This document shows positions 1 to 4,842 of a stretch of 4,842 bases of DNA, in pieces. Under the pieces are notes generated by a model. That model saw nothing but the letters and a program-made list of their open reading frames with translations. It made no database searches and was not told the DNA's origin. How positions within the stretch are numbered: the first letter of the stretch is position 1; each line of letters starts with the position of its first letter. The DNA comes from a virus. Its lineage: Duplodnaviria; Heunggongvirae; Uroviricota; Caudoviricetes. The DNA is taken from positions 1 to 4,842 of the IMG/VR virus record IMGVR_UViG_2541047166_000009. One strand, given 5' to 3'. The position numbers were made by a program, and so were the translations under genes.

Positions 1-684
1 GTTCCACCGTACCGGACGGTGGAGGAGTGGCGGGAATGGCAACTTGCTGAAGGACGAAAACGCAGCGAGGAGATTAACCGCCAGAATCACCAGTTGCGGG
101 TGGAAAAAATCCTGAATCGTTCGGGCATCCAGCCTCTGCACAGCAAATGCTCGTTTGCGAATTATCAGGTGCAGAACGACGGGCTAAAATACGCGCTGAG
201 CCAGGCCAAATCCATAGCTGACGAACTGATGACCGGGTGCACGAATTTTGTGTTCAGCGGTAAAACCGGCACCGGGAAAAATCACCTTGCAGCGGCGATG
301 GGTAACCGGCTGATGGCGAAGGGGCGCAGCGTGATTATCGTCACCGTGTCTGATGTCATGAGCGTGTTGCATGACAGCTACGACAACGGCAAATCCGGGG
401 AAAAATTTTTACAGGAGCTTTGCAGTGTTGATTTGCTGGTCCTGGATGAAATAGGCGTTCAGCGGGAGACGAAAAACGAGCAGGTGGTATTACACCAGAT
501 AATTGATCGCCGGACAGCATCACTGTGCAGTGTCGGGATGTTAACAAACCTGAATCATGCCGCAATGAGTACACTTCTTGGTGAGAGGATTATGGACCGC
601 ATGACCATGAACGGTGGTCGATGGGTGACGTTTAACTGGGATAGCTGGCGTCCAAATGTCAGCAATATGAGGGTTGTGAAGTAA
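1..684 (+). CDS. DnaC-like replicative helicase loader (AAA+ ATPase), 5'-partial; frame is open from base 1, so the true start is probably upstream of the window
   Basis: Walker A GKTGTGKNHLAAAMG and Walker B DLLVLDEIG are present. From recollection the protein is collinear with E. coli DnaC across FxNY, the Walker motifs, GMLTNLN, LLGERIMDRM and FNWDSWR. TAA stop at 682-684. The 19..684 track ORF begins at an internal GTG. Confidence 0.9.
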   Translation, partial: VPPYRTVEEWREWQLAEGRKRSEEINRQNHQLRVEKILNRSGIQPLHSKCSFANYQVQNDGLKYALSQAKSIADELMTGCTNFVFSGKTGTGKNHLAAAMGNRLMAKGRSVIIVTVSDVMSVLHDSYDNGKSGEKFLQELCSVDLLVLDEIGVQRETKNEQVVLHQIIDRRTASLCSVGMLTNLNHAAMSTLLGERIMDRMTMNGGRWVTFNWDSWRPNVSNMRVVK

Positions 685-705
685 TTTTGTCCGGAGGAAA
701 TTTTA

Positions 706-1422
706 ATGGAAACCGTATCTGACGCACTGAAAGCACTGAAAAAAGCCTCTTCACATGTGGTGGCAGCTCGCCTTGGAATTAGTCGTGAAGAGGCTGTCAA
801 CGAACTGTGGAAACTGAAACGCCGTGGAGAAGCGGATAACAAGGGGGCGATATGGTGGCTGACTCAGGCTGGTGAAAGTGAACCGGTGTCACCGGTACCG
901 AAAGTGACGGCGCAAATGCTGACAGAGGCGATTGAACAACATGGCCCACAAACGGCGGATGAACTGGCATTGATGTTCGGAATTACCTCCCGCCGGGCGA
1001 ATTCATCGCTGGCAATGGCAATCAGCAAAGGGTGTCTGATTCGCGTGAATCAGGATGGTAAATTTCGTTACTGCATACCGGGCGTTGATTTACCGGCAGA
1101 GCCGAAAGCAGCATCCGTAGCTGAAACGGAGGGTAAAGCCCTTCCTCAGCCAGCTGGTGTTGCGTTACCAGTCCAGGAAACGGCTGCACAGGAAGAAATT
1201 AAAACAGAAGCGGTGGAGGACATTGTGAAGTTGCAGCAATCGTTCACTGAAGCGAAAGCAGATGACCTGATTCTACCATCGCTGCATGTGGCTAACCGCG
1301 AGCTGCGCCGGGCGAAAAGTAATGTTCAGAAGTGGGAGCGAGTCTGTGCTGCGCTACGGGAACTGAACAAACACAGGGATATTCTCCGGGATATTACCGC
1401 CACCAGAGAGCAGCAGCGGTGA
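706..1422 (+). CDS. Phage protein of unknown function, resembling the DUF1627 family found next to replication genes in enterobacterial prophages; two predicted winged-helix-like N-terminal segments, an acidic Pro/Ala-rich linker and a C-terminal coiled-coil-like region
   Basis: 238-aa ORF with GGAGG at 693-697, 8 nt before ATG 706. It starts 21 nt after the upstream stop. Composition is protein-like. The family name is by recollection only. Confidence 0.8.
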
Positions 1423-1736
1423 GTGGCTGGAAGAAGTGGCGCTGGGCTGAAATCCTGATACTCCGGCAGTGTGCGGGAACGATGAGAGTCGAAAGCATCG
1501 GTTATCTGATTGGCCGTAGTGAGTCAGCCGTCAGGACGAAAGCGCGGGAACTGGGTATCAGCATGATGTTACGGGGTGATTATCACCAGTCAGCCAAATG
1601 TTCACAGCGTGATATTGAGCTGGCGTGGCAACTGCATCAGCGTGGTGTACCCCGACGGGAAATTGCCGAAAAGTTTGGGATGAAGTTGGGCGCAGTGAAT
1701 AACTACGTTTATTTCGACAGGAGGGTTCAGGAGTGA
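1419..1736 (+). CDS. Small putative DNA-binding protein with two tandem HTH-like repeats (about 105 aa); start could instead be ATG 1482
   Basis: GTG 1419 overlaps the upstream TGA as GTGA. Residues from 1419 complete the first of two similar repeats (WAEILILRQ...[21 protein letters not shown] and [31 protein letters not shown]). The track start at 1332 is a GTG deep inside the previous gene and is unlikely. Confidence 0.6.
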
Positions 1737-2035
1737 GGGTGAGGGTTTATATCGCCGGTCCGATGACGGGATATGAAAATTTTAACCGCGAGGCATTTCA
1801 CAAAACGGAAGAGGTGCTGAAACGGGAAGGGCATACCGTTTTAAACCCGGCAGTACTTCCGGACGGGCTGACTCAGCCACACTACATGGATATTTGCATG
1901 GCAATGCTCCGTTGCGTGGATGCGGTTTACATGCTGAAAGGCTGGCAGCAGTCGGCAGGTGCAGGGGCTGAGCTGGCACTGGAGGAGAAACCGGGCCATG
2001 CGGTGATTTTTCAGGAGGTGGGCAGTGAATATTGA
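1733..2035 (+). CDS. DUF4406 / nucleoside 2-deoxyribosyltransferase-like small protein
   Basis: N-terminal VYIAGPMTG motif and a later GWQQSAGAGAELALEE segment match my recollection of this family. GTG 1733 overlaps the upstream stop (GTGA). GTG 1739 is an alternative start, with GGAG 1730-1733 five nt upstream. Confidence 0.8.
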   Translation: MRVRVYIAGPMTGYENFNREAFHKTEEVLKREGHTVLNPAVLPDGLTQPHYMDICMAMLRCVDAVYMLKGWQQSAGAGAELALEEKPGHAVIFQEVGSEY

Positions 2036-2342
2036 CCCGGCGATAACGATTGATATGGCCCTGAACGCCGGCCTGGCACTTCTTGGTTATTTCTACATTA
2101 TGTTCTGCAGCGGACGATGGCTGTCACTGTTGTTCATGAAAAAATGGAATAAACGCCGTAAGCAGGAGCAACGCCAGAAGGCAATGGATGCATTTTTCGA
2201 AGCCTTCGGAATTGACGGCATGGAACCAGGGGATCCAGCTCGCGCAATCAGCAGAGGGGGTGTAGTAATCCTTGTATATCGGAGTGAAGAGAAAAATGAC
2301 GATCACAAAACAACGTGTAGAAGAAATCATATCCCGCATTGA
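2025..2342 (+). CDS. Small hypothetical membrane protein: one predicted N-terminal TM helix followed by a strongly basic stretch (KKWNKRRKQEQRQK)
   Basis: Perfect AGGAGG at 2013-2018, 6 nt before GTG 2025, which overlaps the upstream stop codon. Hydrophobic segment ALNAGLALLGYFYIMFCSGRWLSLLF. Its 3' end overlaps the next gene by 47 nt, so the true extent is uncertain. Confidence 0.5.
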   Translation: MNIDPAITIDMALNAGLALLGYFYIMFCSGRWLSLLFMKKWNKRRKQEQRQKAMDAFFEAFGIDGMEPGDPARAISRGGVVILVYRSEEKNDDHKTTCRRNHIPH

Positions 2343-2613
2343 AATGTATGGACATGGTGCAGGGTATATCGCAGACGAGGTTAATGATCTGGCTATACTG
2401 GCGCTGAATTTATCAAATATCGCGAACCTGAAGCGATACGAGCTTGATATGGGAGGTTGCGACTCGTGCGGTCAGGATTGTGGCGCTGATATGACTGAAG
2501 ATCCTGATGGTGATTATGTCCTGTTTGATGACGTGGTTAAGTTGTTTGAATTTGATACAACCACTCAAAAGTTAGAAATCCCGGCAAAGGAGGCAGCCAG
2601 TGGGCAAGATTGA
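2296..2613 (+). CDS. Hypothetical phage protein (105 aa) with an acidic, Cys-containing C-terminal half
   Basis: ATG 2296 is preceded by GGAGTGAAGAG. Its N-terminus MTITKQRVEEIISRIEMYGHG parallels that of the 3233 gene (MTTITKDRLLTIQHWRETYGPG). The track start at 2272 is a TTG and is less likely. Confidence 0.65.
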   Translation: MTITKQRVEEIISRIEMYGHGAGYIADEVNDLAILALNLSNIANLKRYELDMGGCDSCGQDCGADMTEDPDGDYVLFDDVVKLFEFDTTTQKLEIPAKEAASGQD

Positions 2614-3037
2614 CTATCAGGCACTGCGTGAGGCAGCACAAAACTATCAATCGACGCTGGCGTGGTATCAGGCTACCCCGGACAGCCCAAATGCTGAACG
2701 GGATTGTGATGCGGCTCTTGCTGCGTTTAAGCGTCACATCCGTCATCGGGAAGCGGATATTATCGCTGATTTGCTGGATGGACTGGAAGAAGCAAAATCA
2801 CAACTCAACGAGCAGCGTGAGTATTACGAAGGCGTTATCTCTGATGGGAGCAAGCGTATTGCTGAACTGGAAGCGCGGGAAGTTCAATTACCGACTCGCT
2901 ACGACCTTCGATATGGACACCCGATAAATGCAGATGAGCGACATGTCATGATACCTAAAGAAAATGGCAGTTGGCTTTACCTGATTGACCTAGAACACGC
3001 ATTACGCGTCGCTGGCATTCGCATCAAAGGAGAGTGA
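2600..3037 (+). CDS. ead/Ea22-like family protein
   Basis: AAGGAGG at 2587-2593, 6 nt before GTG 2600. IDYQALREAA, LLDGLEEAK and KRIAELEAREV resemble the conserved N-terminal pattern of Ea22-like prophage proteins as I recall it. Overlaps the upstream gene end by 14 nt. Confidence 0.7.
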   Translation: MGKIDYQALREAAQNYQSTLAWYQATPDSPNAERDCDAALAAFKRHIRHREADIIADLLDGLEEAKSQLNEQREYYEGVISDGSKRIAELEAREVQLPTRYDLRYGHPINADERHVMIPKENGSWLYLIDLEHALRVAGIRIKGE

Positions 3038-3038
3038 G

Positions 3039-3230
3039 ATGAACGGACAAATATCAATTGTTCGACCAGGAGCATGTGACGATCGCGAAATACGAATGAT
3101 TATTCGTCTGGCGATGGGGAAAACAATAACTGCTCTCATTACTCCAGAAAATCTCGCATTAGCATTAACAGGAAAGTCAGACATGCCAGTAGAGCTAAAG
3201 CTGCGAAATGTTGAGATTAAGGTGAAATAG
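3039..3230 (+). CDS. Small hypothetical phage protein (63 aa)
   Basis: AAGGAG at 3027-3032, 6 nt before ATG 3039. Starts 1 nt after the upstream TGA and ends 2 nt before the next start. Confidence 0.6.
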   Translation: MNGQISIVRPGACDDREIRMIIRLAMGKTITALITPENLALALTGKSDMPVELKLRNVEIKVK

Positions 3231-3232
3231 CT

Positions 3233-3790
3233 ATGACCACTATTACCAAAGATCGACTGCTGACAATCCAGCATTGGCGCGAAACATACGGACCGGGTAG
3301 CAACGTTGTGCTTCCAGCAGAAGAAGCGGAAGAGCTGGCACGGATTGCGCTGGCATCACTGGCAGCAGTATCGGATGAACGAGCAGCCTATGAATTATTT
3401 ATGGAGAAGCGTTTCGGAGAATCTGTAGATCGCCGCAGAGCAAAAAATGGCGATAGAGATTACATGGTATGGGATATGGCGCTTGGCTGGATTATCTGGT
3501 GTCACCGCGCCGCCATGCTTCAGGCTGGAAACTTTCGGGAAAATAAGGGTTCGTCAACCAATAATTTTCGGATAATCTCGGAAACGTCAACCAACTCTCC
3601 GGCAATCCCTGATGAGGTGTTGTCCGCAATCCTGAAGGTCGCCAGGCTTCGTGCAGATTTCGATGCTTCTGAAGTGGACAGGCGAGGTATCGGTAGTTGT
3701 CTGGATGAGGCCGAGCAAGAACTTATCGTTACCATTAACGAATACGCCAGTCAGATCGCAGTAGAAGCGACACAGGGGGAGAACCAATGA
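3233..3790 (+). CDS. Hypothetical phage protein (185 aa) whose N-terminus is related to that of the 2296 gene
   Basis: ATG 3233 follows AAGGTGA at 3219-3225. Long protein-like ORF in the operon direction. Confidence 0.75.
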   Translation: MTTITKDRLLTIQHWRETYGPGSNVVLPAEEAEELARIALASLAAVSDERAAYELFMEKRFGESVDRRRAKNGDRDYMVWDMALGWIIWCHRAAMLQAGNFRENKGSSTNNFRIISETSTNSPAIPDEVLSAILKVARLRADFDASEVDRRGIGSCLDEAEQELIVTINEYASQIAVEATQGENQ

Positions 3791-3864
3791 GCCGGCCAGA
3801 TGCATTTGCAGGCGTTGCTATAGCTATTGCTTTTCTAGTATATGTTATTTGTCGGTGGGGGTAA
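3787..3864 (+). CDS. Candidate 25-aa hydrophobic micropeptide (MSRPDAFAGVAIAIAFLVYVICRWG)
   Basis: ATG 3787 overlaps the upstream TGA as ATGA, the same coupling geometry seen elsewhere in the operon. One predicted TM-like segment. Absent from the ORF track, presumably for length. Could be chance. Confidence 0.3.
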   Translation: MSRPDAFAGVAIAIAFLVYVICRWG

Positions 3865-3899
3865 AAACGTTCGCCGGGATTCACACCAAGGGAGGGAAT

Positions 3900-4004
3900 A
3901 TGTCGGATGATATTTCACTGGTAATGGAAGGCGCTCTGGCTGTTATTGCTGTTGTGGGTGTTTACTGCCTGGTTGTGTTTTTGATGGAGCGCCTGGGGAA
4001 CTGA
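3900..4004 (+). CDS. Candidate 34-aa single-TM micropeptide (MSDDISLVMEGALAVIAVVGVYCLVVFLMERLGN)
   Basis: Strong SD AAGGGAGGG at 3888-3896 just upstream of ATG 3900. Hydrophobic core with charged termini. TGA at 4002-4004. Absent from the ORF track. Confidence 0.45.
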   Translation: MSDDISLVMEGALAVIAVVGVYCLVVFLMERLGN

Positions 4005-4014
4005 ATTCATTCCG

Positions 4015-4030
4015 TATGGGAATTCCCATA
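4015..4030. promoter_or_regulatory. 16-bp perfect palindrome TATGGGAATTCCCATA; candidate operator or RNA hairpin just upstream of the hok promoter
   Basis: The sequence equals its own reverse complement. It lies 15 nt upstream of the candidate -35 element. Confidence 0.35.
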
Positions 4031-4044
4031 TCGGGCAAAACGGT

Positions 4045-4072
4045 TTGCTGTAAAGCGAGAGTTAAGTAGAAT
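4045..4072 (+). promoter_or_regulatory. Candidate sigma-70 promoter for the hok/mok mRNA (-35 TTGCTG 4045-4050, 16-nt spacer, -10 TAGAAT 4067-4072)
   Basis: Hexamers read from the sequence. The predicted start near 4077-4080 coincides with the 5' element that is complementary to the 3' end of the locus. Confidence 0.4.
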
Positions 4073-4075
4073 TGC

Positions 4076-4090
4076 TGCGGGTGCTTGAGG
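4076..4090 (+). promoter_or_regulatory. hok mRNA 5' element (tac-like) complementary to the 3' fbi-like element at 4453-4468
   Basis: GCGGGTGC (4077-4084) pairs with GCACCCGC (4460-4467) and TTGAGG (4085-4090) pairs with CCTCAA (4453-4458), giving 14 bp with one bulged C. Confidence 0.5.
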
Positions 4091-4149
4091 CTGTCTGCCT
4101 CGGGCATGCCACCGTAAGGCAGACAGAGAAAAGCCCCAGTTAACATTAC

Positions 4150-4272
4150 GCGTCCTGCAAGACGCTTAACATTAATCTGAGGCCCAATCTATGCTTCACA
4201 AACGTAGGTTAGCCTCTTACGCGCCGAAAGGCAAGGAGAAGCAGGTTATGAAGCAGCAAAAGGCGATGTTAA
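4150..4272 (-). ncRNA. sok: Candidate Sok-like antisense RNA region; boundaries not resolved
   Basis: Expected from hok locus architecture. A weak minus-strand promoter candidate is TTAACA (complement of 4267-4272), 16-nt spacer, CATAAC (complement of 4245-4250). A short hairpin at 4150-4165 could be its 3' end, but no clean U-tract follows. Confidence 0.2.
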
Positions 4273-4403
4273 TCGCCCTGATCGTCATCTGTTTAACCGT
4301 CATAGTGACGGCACTGGTAACGAGGAAAGACCTCTGCGAGGTACGAATCCGAACCGGCCAGACGGAGGTCGCTGTCTTCACAGCTTACGAACCTGAGGAG
4401 TAA
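4191..4403 (+). CDS. mok: Mok-like in-frame N-terminal extension of hok (modulator of killing), 70 aa
   Basis: ATG 4191 with GAGG at 4179-4182. The extension MLHKRRLASYAPKGKEKQV precedes the Hok methionine in the same frame, which resembles chromosomal MokC as I recall it. Confidence 0.55.
   Translation: MLHKRRLASYAPKGKEKQVMKQQKAMLIALIVICLTVIVTALVTRKDLCEVRIRTGQTEVAVFTAYEPEE
4248..4403 (+). CDS. hokD: Hok/Gef-family type I toxin (51 aa), matching HokD/RelF as I recall it
   Basis: MKQQKAMLIALIVICLTVIVTALVTRKDLCEVRIRTGQTEVAVFTAYEPEE has the Hok TM segment and the conserved LCE..IR..G..EVAAF-type periplasmic tail. AAGGAG at 4233-4238, 9 nt before ATG 4248. TAA at 4401-4403. Confidence 0.9.
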   Translation: MKQQKAMLIALIVICLTVIVTALVTRKDLCEVRIRTGQTEVAVFTAYEPEE

Positions 4404-4472
4404 GAGACCAGGCGGGGGAGAAATCCCTCGCCACCGCTGATGTGTCAGGCATCCTCAACGCACCCGCACTTA

Positions 4473-4498
4473 ACCCGCTTCGGCGGGTTTTGTTTTTT
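4473..4498 (+). terminator. Rho-independent terminator of the hok mRNA
   Basis: ACCCGC-TTCG-GCGGGT stem-loop followed by TTTGTTTTTT. Confidence 0.8.
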
Positions 4499-4519
4499 CT
4501 GGTCGTTCTGGTTTACAAT
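4490..4519 (+). promoter_or_regulatory. Candidate promoter for the downstream gene (-35 TTGTTT 4490-4495, 18-nt spacer, -10 TACAAT 4514-4519)
   Basis: Hexamers read from the sequence. The -35 overlaps the terminator T-tract, so this is weak. Confidence 0.25.
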
Positions 4520-4570
4520 CCATCCGTCAGCCTGAACAACTGGCACCTGCTGCGCCAGCAGAGAAAACAG

Positions 4571-4842
4571 ATGGCGCACGATACCAAATTTTACAATTCG
4601 GATAACTCTGCCGCCCCTGCCAGCAGGCACGGGCGGCGTTCTCATGCATTCAAATCTGACTGGTATCAGCACGACCCCTGCACCGAAGAACAGGCTGAAT
4701 GGCTGATTCAGTGTTACCGCAGGCGCGGATACGAGGTTAAAAAAGCCCTCAGTCTCGATTATCGTCACTGGATAATCTCCGTCAGGCTCCCTTACTCCGA
4801 ACGGCCACCGCGTCCGTCCCGCACATTCCAGCAACGGATCTG
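4571..4842 (+). CDS. Hypothetical protein, 3'-partial (continues beyond the window); family not recognised
   Basis: ATG 4571 is the first start after the terminator in a frame that stays open to the window end (90 codons), with a purine-rich AGAGAAAACAG upstream. Not in the track, presumably because it has no in-window stop. A 129-aa ORF on the opposite strand overlaps it. Confidence 0.45.
   Translation, partial: MAHDTKFYNSDNSAAPASRHGRRSHAFKSDWYQHDPCTEEQAEWLIQCYRRRGYEVKKALSLDYRHWIISVRLPYSERPPRPSRTFQQRI

Follow-up and report, generated by a model that had tools for sequence, protein, structure and literature searches.

Two micro-genes for predicted single-helix membrane peptides upstream of a prophage hok/sok locus: a divergent copy of a widespread 27-residue family and a separate small cassette

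What, if anything, is encoded in the short interval between the small early genes and the hok/sok toxin-antitoxin locus of a lambdoid Escherichia coli prophage? The stretch of DNA analysed here, which we call the window, comprises 4,842 nucleotides (nt; positions 1 to 4,842 of the IMG/VR virus record IMGVR_UViG_2541047166_000009, Caudoviricetes). A sequence-only reading of it had pointed to two tandem hydrophobic open reading frames (ORFs) immediately upstream of hok, of 25 and 34 amino acids (aa), here termed ORF-A and ORF-B, proposing that they might be small membrane toxins, modulators or lysis-timing peptides and that the shorter one could have arisen by chance. According to our analysis, ORF-A is a divergent member of a widespread phage family and ORF-B belongs to a narrow family that is already annotated. 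We consider it somewhat better than an even bet that the two are independent, genuine micro-genes for single-pass inner-membrane peptides, carried as accessory cargo of the lambdoid early region and acting in a modulator-type manner. The features concerned are the following.

3233–3790, plus strand: 185-aa early-region ORF; its last codons hold the Shine-Dalgarno (SD) motif of ORF-A and its TGA stop (3788–3790) overlaps the ORF-A ATG
3775–3781, plus strand: SD-like GGGGGAG of ORF-A, within the upstream gene and 5 nt before the ORF-A start
3787–3864, plus strand: ORF-A, 25 aa, MSRPDAFAGVAIAIAFLVYVICRWG, with its ATG at 3787–3789 in an ATGA overlap with the upstream stop
3888–3896, plus strand: strong SD of ORF-B, AAGGGAGGG, kept as AA[GA]GGAGGG in all variants
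3900–4004, plus strand: ORF-B, 34 aa, MSDDISLVMEGALAVIAVVGVYCLVVFLMERLGN, a predicted single-helix membrane protein identical to WP_001278460.1

Both ORFs were found exactly where they had been described, with the ATGA overlap and the SD motifs in place, and each contains one hydrophobic stretch, as had been claimed: the best 17-residue Kyte-Doolittle mean is 2.66 for ORF-A and 2.95 for ORF-B. For ORF-B, AlphaFold2 returned one continuous helix over residues 3–33 (mean pLDDT 91). When ORFs were required to start with ATG, to encode 20–50 aa, to carry an SD-like motif 4–16 nt upstream and to reach a hydropathy of at least 2.3, ORF-A and ORF-B were the sole ORFs in the whole window to pass, and none of 300 mononucleotide shuffles gave a passer. 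The SD of ORF-B is predicted to be more accessible than the local average and the ORF-A start codon to be base-paired, which we regard as weak evidence.

Judged from its sequence, ORF-A is an atypical, divergent copy of a widespread and uncatalogued family of 27-aa phage micro-proteins of the form MxWPEAF...CRWG. A tblastn search with the 27-aa form retrieved 99 phage records with full-length matches at 60–80% identity and 196 plasmid records, and pattern scans of IMG/VR yielded at least 500 confirmed stretches per scan. Most plasmid carriers come from E. coli or Salmonella, are non-mobilizable and measure ~90–120 kb, which would correspond to the P1/SSU5-like phage-plasmid size class. We inspected loci of Stx2a_WGPS2, ArgO145, VT1-Sakai and 933W, of the virulent Vequintavirinae TH18 and Av-05, of an Actinobacillus-labelled phage and of an IncY (P1-type) Salmonella plasmid; each contains 27 codons and an ATGA overlap with the upstream stop, and in each record the ORF is unannotated. 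A member is also present in VT2-Sakai (Sp5), and in both 933W and Sp5 it lies directly upstream of hokW. Family members were also seen in virulent phages and, within the early region, close to int-xis. As a side observation, the Actinobacillus-labelled record (PP818812.1, 'Actinobacillus phage vB_Apl-pPE4', host Actinobacillus pleuropneumoniae) has a hok region 95.7% identical to that of the window and the same 27-aa micro-ORF as the E. coli phage ArgO145, and its host assignment looks doubtful.

From 362 loci we extracted 343 family copies representing 24 peptide variants, 317 of them with 27 codons and 26 of the 25-codon window type, the latter restricted to a tight O157-type group. The ATGA start is present in 343/343 copies. 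At residue 2, T, N, I and S are the sole amino acids, encoded by codons that begin with A, which is what maintenance of the upstream TGA in the overlap would predict. This architecture persists in diverse surroundings, with at least eight classes of upstream C-terminus (DUF551, Ea22 plus DUF551, and domain-less genes), every class bearing GGAGG or GGGGA equivalents in its last codons, and with more than 15 kinds of downstream sequence. The peptides share a common layout, in which W3 and F7 precede a core of 17–19 residues that is followed by Y21, W26 and a single Arg on the C-terminal side.

For the family we compared nonsynonymous (pN) with synonymous (pS) differences, one of the checks that the sequence-only reading had named. 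Over codons 3–27 of 57 unique nucleotide sequences, pS was 0.397 and pN 0.105, giving a pN/pS of 0.26 as compared to 0.97 and 2.93 in the shifted frames; these ratios are pairwise sums over related, redundant sequences selected by a peptide pattern at both ends, and thus descriptive rather than phylogenetic tests, and the antisense frame that shares third positions is also low (0.35–0.36). G11, R25 and G27 are invariant yet each is written with all four synonymous codons, and W3 and W26 are invariant too. Disruption is rare, affecting ~13/358 copies, nine of which come from one lineage whose stop trims only the last two residues. With 343 copies under such constraint, ORF-A represents the broadest conserved family at this locus, and the suspicion that the 25-aa ORF was fortuitous is not supported. 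Frame-specific purifying selection, together with carriage by three very different kinds of mobile element, makes it appear that the peptide itself matters.

Despite this distribution, the family has gone largely unrecorded. Pfam, PHROGs and NCBIfam hold no model for it, five 27-aa variants giving sub-threshold transmembrane noise only, and the same kind of noise was all that these collections and PADLOC returned for the two window peptides. The family's peptide motifs were not found in the literature and supplements searched, including 'The Cryptic Bacterial Microproteome' and the EDL933 translatome paper, and the hokW-sokW paper (PMC8621323) does not mention upstream small ORFs. In the K-12 prophages CPS-53, Rac, Qin and DLP12 no member of either the ORF-A or the ORF-B family was found, so K-12 small-protein catalogues are uninformative here. 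In public records ORF-A is called only by a few GenBank submitters, who list a 27-aa ORF as a hypothetical protein. The description of the pair as unannotated largely stands for ORF-A, and fails for ORF-B, as detailed below.

How far the window's own copy shares in this conservation is less clear-cut. Its 25-codon length results from an in-frame 6-nt deletion, all other variants having 27 codons, and its N-terminus, R3-P4-D5-A6-F7, fits the family motif W3-P4-[ED]5-A6-F7 at four of five positions, with W3 replaced. The sequence GVAIAIAFLVYVICRWG* aligns with the family column for column, and the window copy keeps the ATGA, the SD, the frame, the core Gly, the CRWG end and the stop. The window block is 87–90% identical at the nucleotide level to loci carrying MNWPEAFAITGVAMAIAFLVYVICRWG and collinear with them, indicating homology by descent. 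ORF-A is open among the window's close relatives, and a group ~88% identical has an in-frame 6-nt insertion corresponding to the 27-aa form.

Several points weigh against our reading, in addition to the limits of the selection test given above. The window ORF-A has R3 in place of a tryptophan that is invariant in 57/57 unique 27-codon sequences and lacks two core residues before the conserved Gly; among close relatives its pN/pS is 0.50 as compared to 0.72 and 0.79 off frame, indicating weak constraint that hardly depends on frame; and the copy may be decaying. For ORF-B, the published ribosome profiling (RIBOseq) reads from strain Sakai (PMC5597208) may be multi-mapped owing to several copies of the block in that genome, the study lists only ORF-B, ORF-A is below its 30-aa cut-off, and our scan found no promoter to account for the expression of ORF-B without induction. 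Finally, the mechanism discussed below is drawn by analogy. The substituted tryptophan, the two-residue deletion, the restriction of the variant to the O157-type group and the near frame-independence in close relatives would all be accounted for if ORF-B alone were functional here and the window ORF-A were a decaying relic, open by chance or because the decay is recent. The deletion, however, preserves the frame and every signal listed above, the core still comprises 17 residues, and its hydropathy is the highest in the family. We therefore regard the relic explanation as possible although doubtful, and the window allele as probably still functional.

The 34-aa ORF-B proved to be a known gene. 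A coding sequence identical to 3900–4004 is annotated by PGAP as the hypothetical protein WP_001278460.1, the exact sequence occurs on ~1000 contigs in the protein collection, and PGAP calls ORF-B or its close variants (WP_001278459, WP_001278450, WP_001278454) in every RefSeq genome inspected. The Sakai homologue is ECs_5710 in prophage Sp6, which is located between a DUF551 gene and mok/hok and differs by V8A and E30D. This Sakai copy is XECs145, a novel gene of Hücker et al. 2017 (PMC5597208), where it was modelled with an N-terminal extension as a 54-aa protein; the 34-aa form is favoured over this longer model by the PGAP call and by the strong SD, which is conserved. In that study, XECs145 was among the better translated novel ORFs of an exponential culture in lysogeny broth, with an RNA value of 79.1 reads per kilobase per million (RPKM), a translatome RPKM of 346.1, a ribosomal coverage value of 4.35 and a coverage of 0.99 (S2 table), all measured on the Sakai Sp6 copy that is two aa different from the window allele. 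In the brain heart infusion control the corresponding values were 121.3 (RNA), 150.1 (translatome) and 1.14 (ribosomal coverage value), and under cold and osmotic stress translation was almost gone (RIBO RPKM 1.1; PMC5597208). The authors predicted an inner-membrane location, assigned the class 'real' and noted annotation as hypothetical in another enterohaemorrhagic E. coli strain (PMC5597208). Ribosome occupancy, which the sequence-only reading had likewise put forward as a check, is hence on record for the ORF-B homologue and lies outside that study's size range for ORF-A.

ORF-B is also under clear constraint. The 271-bp micro-ORF block is present in 674/5426 complete E. coli genomes, and ORF-B is intact in 121/121 true copies extracted. 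Its pN/pS is 0.19–0.20 in frame as compared to 1.15 and 2.89 in the shifted frames, variable sites being mostly third positions, and the only other low frame is the antisense third-position mirror (0.36). The family is narrow, limited to E. coli prophages as far as the searches covered it. A word-indexed protein search, for which the 51-aa in-frame extension of ORF-B served as query, gave ~24 clusters, none of them from outside E. coli or Enterobacteriaceae; exhaustive phmmer against 1.84 billion representative proteins gave six ORF-B hits, all at least 79% identical; and protein-pattern and DNA-pattern scans of the GTDB species representatives, which are silent on ORF-A, found no copy of the ORF-B block.

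Taken together, the two selection tests bear on the idea that both ORFs are chance openings in a non-coding spacer. They are indeed very short, and the high overall nucleotide conservation of the region makes intactness as such weak evidence. A spacer would, however, not be expected to show frame-specific purifying selection in both families, an ORF-A peptide kept across unrelated flanks, a published footprint signal for ORF-B and a shuffle test without a single passer; we consider chance extremely improbable. At the level of comparative sequence analysis, the coding status of both families and the ATGA architecture are shown, as is the modularity described below.

In a further arrangement, a programmed -1 frameshift at the G-run before the ORF-A stop would fuse the two ORFs into a two-helix protein of ~72 aa. 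ORF-B is in the -1 frame relative to ORF-A, this frame is open across the 35-nt spacer, the sequence at the ORF-A stop reads G GGG GTA A, and two 74-aa proteins in the database, P0008 and P0009, are fusions of precisely this kind. In these 74-aa proteins the frames are joined by an extra G in the G5 run at 3857–3861 (P0008 and P0009) or by a T-run shift (P0005). They come from a few metagenome or Logan contigs, one additional homopolymer G is sufficient to explain a fusion, and all three probably represent homopolymer sequencing errors or rare mutants. The G-run is moreover not conserved in the family, where codon 27 is GGA, GGT, GGC or GGG, most family members have no downstream ORF-B, ORF-B has its own strong SD and ATG, and an open stretch of ~13 codons is expected by chance about half the time. 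We rejected the programmed fusion on account of the unconserved run, the homopolymer explanation and ORF-B's own start signals, and hold it to be very improbable.

How the two micro-genes relate to hok/sok can be judged from the region between them and the toxin locus, which contains the following features.

3870–4042, plus strand: ORF-B cassette of ~173 bp, consisting of SD, 34-codon ORF and palindrome only, with AAACG on both flanks
4015–4030: perfect 16-nt palindrome TATGGGAATTCCCATA, separated by 10 nt from the ORF-B stop and by 14 nt from the putative hok -35 downstream
4045–4072, plus strand: inferred hok promoter, with -35 TTGCTG at 4045–4050 and -10 TAGAAT at 4067–4072
4079–4403, plus strand: hok/sok type I toxin-antitoxin locus, with Rfam sok at 4079–4253 (114.9 bits), mok at 4191–4403 and hok at 4248–4403

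In 933W-type loci (L130 and L369), which are otherwise collinear with the window, AAACGGTTTGCGGG and the hok promoter come immediately after the stop of the micro-ORF; against this direct junction, window positions 3870–4042 read as a ~173-bp insertion between ORF-A and the hok promoter. The palindrome is kept in all loci with the ORF-B cassette, showing one mismatch in the hok-less L069 type, and is absent from 933W-type and 29-aa-lineage loci. No T-run follows it, which means that it is not an intrinsic terminator, and it may be a protein-binding site. On the other side, the similarity between hok-containing and hok-less loci stops at the hok promoter region, at about the hok transcription start, and the Rfam model of the sok/hok 5' region begins at 4079. 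By these comparisons, the inferred hok promoter would form the right-hand boundary of the micro-ORF module.

The slot before hok can also be filled by a divergent ORF-B lineage, a GTG-initiated ORF of 29 aa with the sequence MLVLKCALAI[TA]AVMAIYCLA[IV]VLMDRLSD. It shares 50% protein and 64% DNA identity with ORF-B, the differences being distributed 11:4:15 over codon positions 1, 2 and 3. Its loci were gathered by a DNA pattern obtained from back-translation, which biased the selection test; with the pattern codons removed the frames were not discriminated, and we do not count this test as evidence. Including this lineage, four arrangements were observed.

ORF-A, ORF-B and hok (the window type): ~100/107 loci of the block with enough flank
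ORF-A family and hok, no ORF-B: 933W, Sp5 and pPE4
ORF-B-like ORF and hok, no ORF-A: mEp460_ev081 and Evi; hok follows in 96/106 loci, and a 27-aa family member is located upstream in 6/120
ORF-A and ORF-B, no hok/sok: three loci (L069, L108 and L112) next to Mu-like genes

The arrangements do not agree with a single unit of two tandem ORFs plus hok, as the sequence-only reading had implied, and on this comparative evidence ORF-A, ORF-B and hok/sok are shown to be separable modules. Two side observations concern these loci. At L069 (~4700–9040), and also at L108 and L112, the micro-ORF pair is downstream of a chimeric DUF551 gene, close to genes for a Mu-like repressor, a ner-like protein and a MuA-like transposase, and is convergent with ParB-like and PAPS-reductase-like genes; such loci may have arisen when a Mu-like prophage integrated into a lambdoid early region or recombined with it. 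In several other prophages hok itself is inactivated, by an insertion right after CAAGGAGA of the SD (L023, L032 and L054) or by an internal deletion (L081), and ORF-A, ORF-B and the sok region are still intact there.

Given this neighbourhood, ORF-B might be a third, protein component of hok/sok that modulates Hok in the membrane or influences the hok promoter. Two lineages with only half of their protein residues in common both occur immediately before the hok promoter, hok follows in the great majority of loci of either type, and the cassette fits precisely into the gap that separates the ORF-A stop from the hok -35. Conversely, an intact ORF-B is found in the three loci without hok/sok, hok-region DNA is present in 4785/5426 genomes as compared to the 674 with the micro-ORF block, and hokW of 933W and Sp5 is not accompanied by ORF-B. 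Co-inheritance of neighbouring DNA can account for the linkage, and ORF-B is unrelated to Hok by sequence. A functional tie to hok/sok thus appears quite unlikely. A relationship of ORF-B to Hok was rejected: HOK_GEF was not matched, and hhalign gave a probability of 1.2%.

More generally, short hydrophobic helices beside a known membrane toxin raise the question of whether one or both peptides are membrane toxins themselves, of type I or lysis-like. A weak minus-strand promoter-like match at 3865–3837 would fit an antisense RNA in this scheme, although it is not clearly above chance. Neither peptide matches Hok/Gef or another toxin family in Pfam, NCBIfam, PHROG or PADLOC, and no Rfam match, that is, no described RNA family, was found in 3787–4004 even at E up to 1. 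Whereas the translation of a type I toxin would be off, the ORF-B SD is exposed and the homologue is highly translated in growing cultures; ORF-A, for its part, is probably coupled in translation to early genes of ordinary kinds, and its family is also present in virulent phages and on plasmids. The pair is furthermore located upstream of Q and outside the lysis cassette. The toxin proposal of the sequence-only reading accordingly found no backing and strikes us as improbable, and lysis timing is at odds with the early-region position.

This position follows from a collinear annotated O157:H7 prophage, in which the same strand runs on past hok through DUF968, rusA and the Q antiterminator. By gene order, the ORF-A/ORF-B pair is inside the delayed-early region, outside the lysis cassette, and not at an operon end as had been stated. 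In agreement with this, a promoter and terminator scan found no terminator-like site in 3000–4470, hence none before hok, and no convincing promoter for ORF-A or ORF-B; its four promoter-like matches, as compared to 1.6 expected from shuffles, hardly exceed chance. Just 3' of hok, a terminator-like hairpin at 4472–4489 is overlapped by a sub-threshold Rfam match to the prophage small RNA IsrK (4412–4493; 27.2 bits as compared to a gathering score of 50, E = 0.006), which we record as a side observation.

Returning to two independent micro-genes as the preferred explanation, we propose the following mode of expression and action. ORF-A, having no promoter of its own, would most likely be translated by termination-reinitiation at the ATGA, guided by the SD embedded in the last codons of the upstream gene. 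ORF-B would be a separate cassette placed between ORF-A and the hok promoter, efficiently translated from its own strong SD in growing lysogens to give a peptide with an acidic N-terminus followed by one transmembrane helix. Both peptides are predicted to insert into the inner membrane as single helices, probably in an N-out/C-in orientation, as suggested by the lone Arg at the C-terminal side and by aromatic residues at either end of the core. We assume that they act by helix-helix binding to a membrane protein of host or phage, rather than by pore formation or killing; the 27-aa family has a helix face of small residues (G11, A13, A15 and A17). Of the functions initially considered, modulator is the most plausible by analogy, and a small inner-membrane modulator role seems most likely for both peptides. 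A bolder version would have the 27-aa peptide act on one conserved enterobacterial inner-membrane target in Stx phages, P1-type phage-plasmids and Vequintavirinae, obligatorily coupled to the preceding early gene, with the 34-aa protein as a third, protein-level component of hok/sok; we rate this combination as unlikely.

As a whole, the window represents the early-right part of a lambdoid E. coli prophage. A run of small early genes follows the DUF1627-type gene, ends with the 185-aa ORF, and is succeeded by ORF-A, ORF-B and hok/sok.

19–684, plus strand: DnaC-like gene
706–1422, plus strand: DUF1627-type gene
2025–2342: 105-aa GTG-initiated ORF whose hydrophobic N-terminal segment (LNAGLALLGYFYIMFCSGRWLSLLF) gives way to a strongly basic stretch

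This early-region ORF of 105 aa may likewise encode a small membrane protein. The 185-aa ORF has no Pfam match and matches phrog_14306; in other loci its slot is occupied by DUF551, Ea22 plus DUF551 or domain-less genes. It is a mosaic, in that its N-terminal two-thirds match the N-terminus of a DUF551-type protein in L069 (5118–5630), while its C-terminus differs from that protein and lacks the DUF551 domain. Its last ~27 nt are nevertheless still related to the ends of DUF551 genes, which places a recombination junction inside the gene.

Starting from an ORF that was suspected to be fortuitous, sequence comparison thus brings out a family that is conserved and widespread yet practically absent from annotation, and in which the stop-start overlap does not vary. 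A 27-codon, stop-overlapping gene is missing from the annotation of 933W and Sp5 and from Pfam, PHROGs and NCBIfam, although these Stx phages are among the most closely studied, and gene callers and surveys of 'intergenic smORFs' (small ORFs) alike miss micro-genes that are coupled through a 4-nt overlap. As a candidate for a new membrane interaction between phage and host, the 27-aa peptide is amenable to study. In addition, the hokW locus of Sp5 has an unrecognised coding neighbour and elsewhere a translated small membrane protein sits at the hok promoter, which means that hok deletion constructs and promoter mapping should allow for both micro-ORFs.

Finally, we compared the two peptides with known systems. 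Unlike holins, antiholins and lysis-timing proteins, whose genes belong to the late lysis cassette and come after Q, beside those for endolysin and spanins, the pair is encoded upstream of hok, DUF968, rusA and Q. With Hok/Gef proteins such as hokW-sokW of Sp5 (PMC8621323) both share the small size, the hydrophobic, predicted inner-membrane character and the same prophage region, whereas they show no homology and no Rfam match to a Sok-like RNA, and lack a mok-like leader ORF, a folded long 5' untranslated region and a periplasmic C-terminal domain. ORF-B resembles the phage 'morons' (PMC3594210) in being a discrete insertion, present or absent between conserved flanks, and, going by the published RIBOseq data (PMC5597208), in being expressed by lysogens without induction. 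A classical moron, in contrast, has its own promoter and terminator, neither of which was detected for ORF-B in our scan. Enterobacteria also possess small single-pass regulatory inner-membrane proteins, among them MgtS, AcrZ, MgrB, KdpF and PmrR. The two micro-genes differ from this type in showing no sequence homology, the best match being a sub-threshold one to KdpF (14.7 bits as compared to a cut-off of 26.85), in being phage-borne and, for ORF-A, in being expressed by overlap coupling rather than by own signals. They resemble it in that both products are shorter than 50 aa, with one predicted transmembrane helix and short charged ends, and in that the small residues along the helix of the 27-aa family would suit helix-helix packing.

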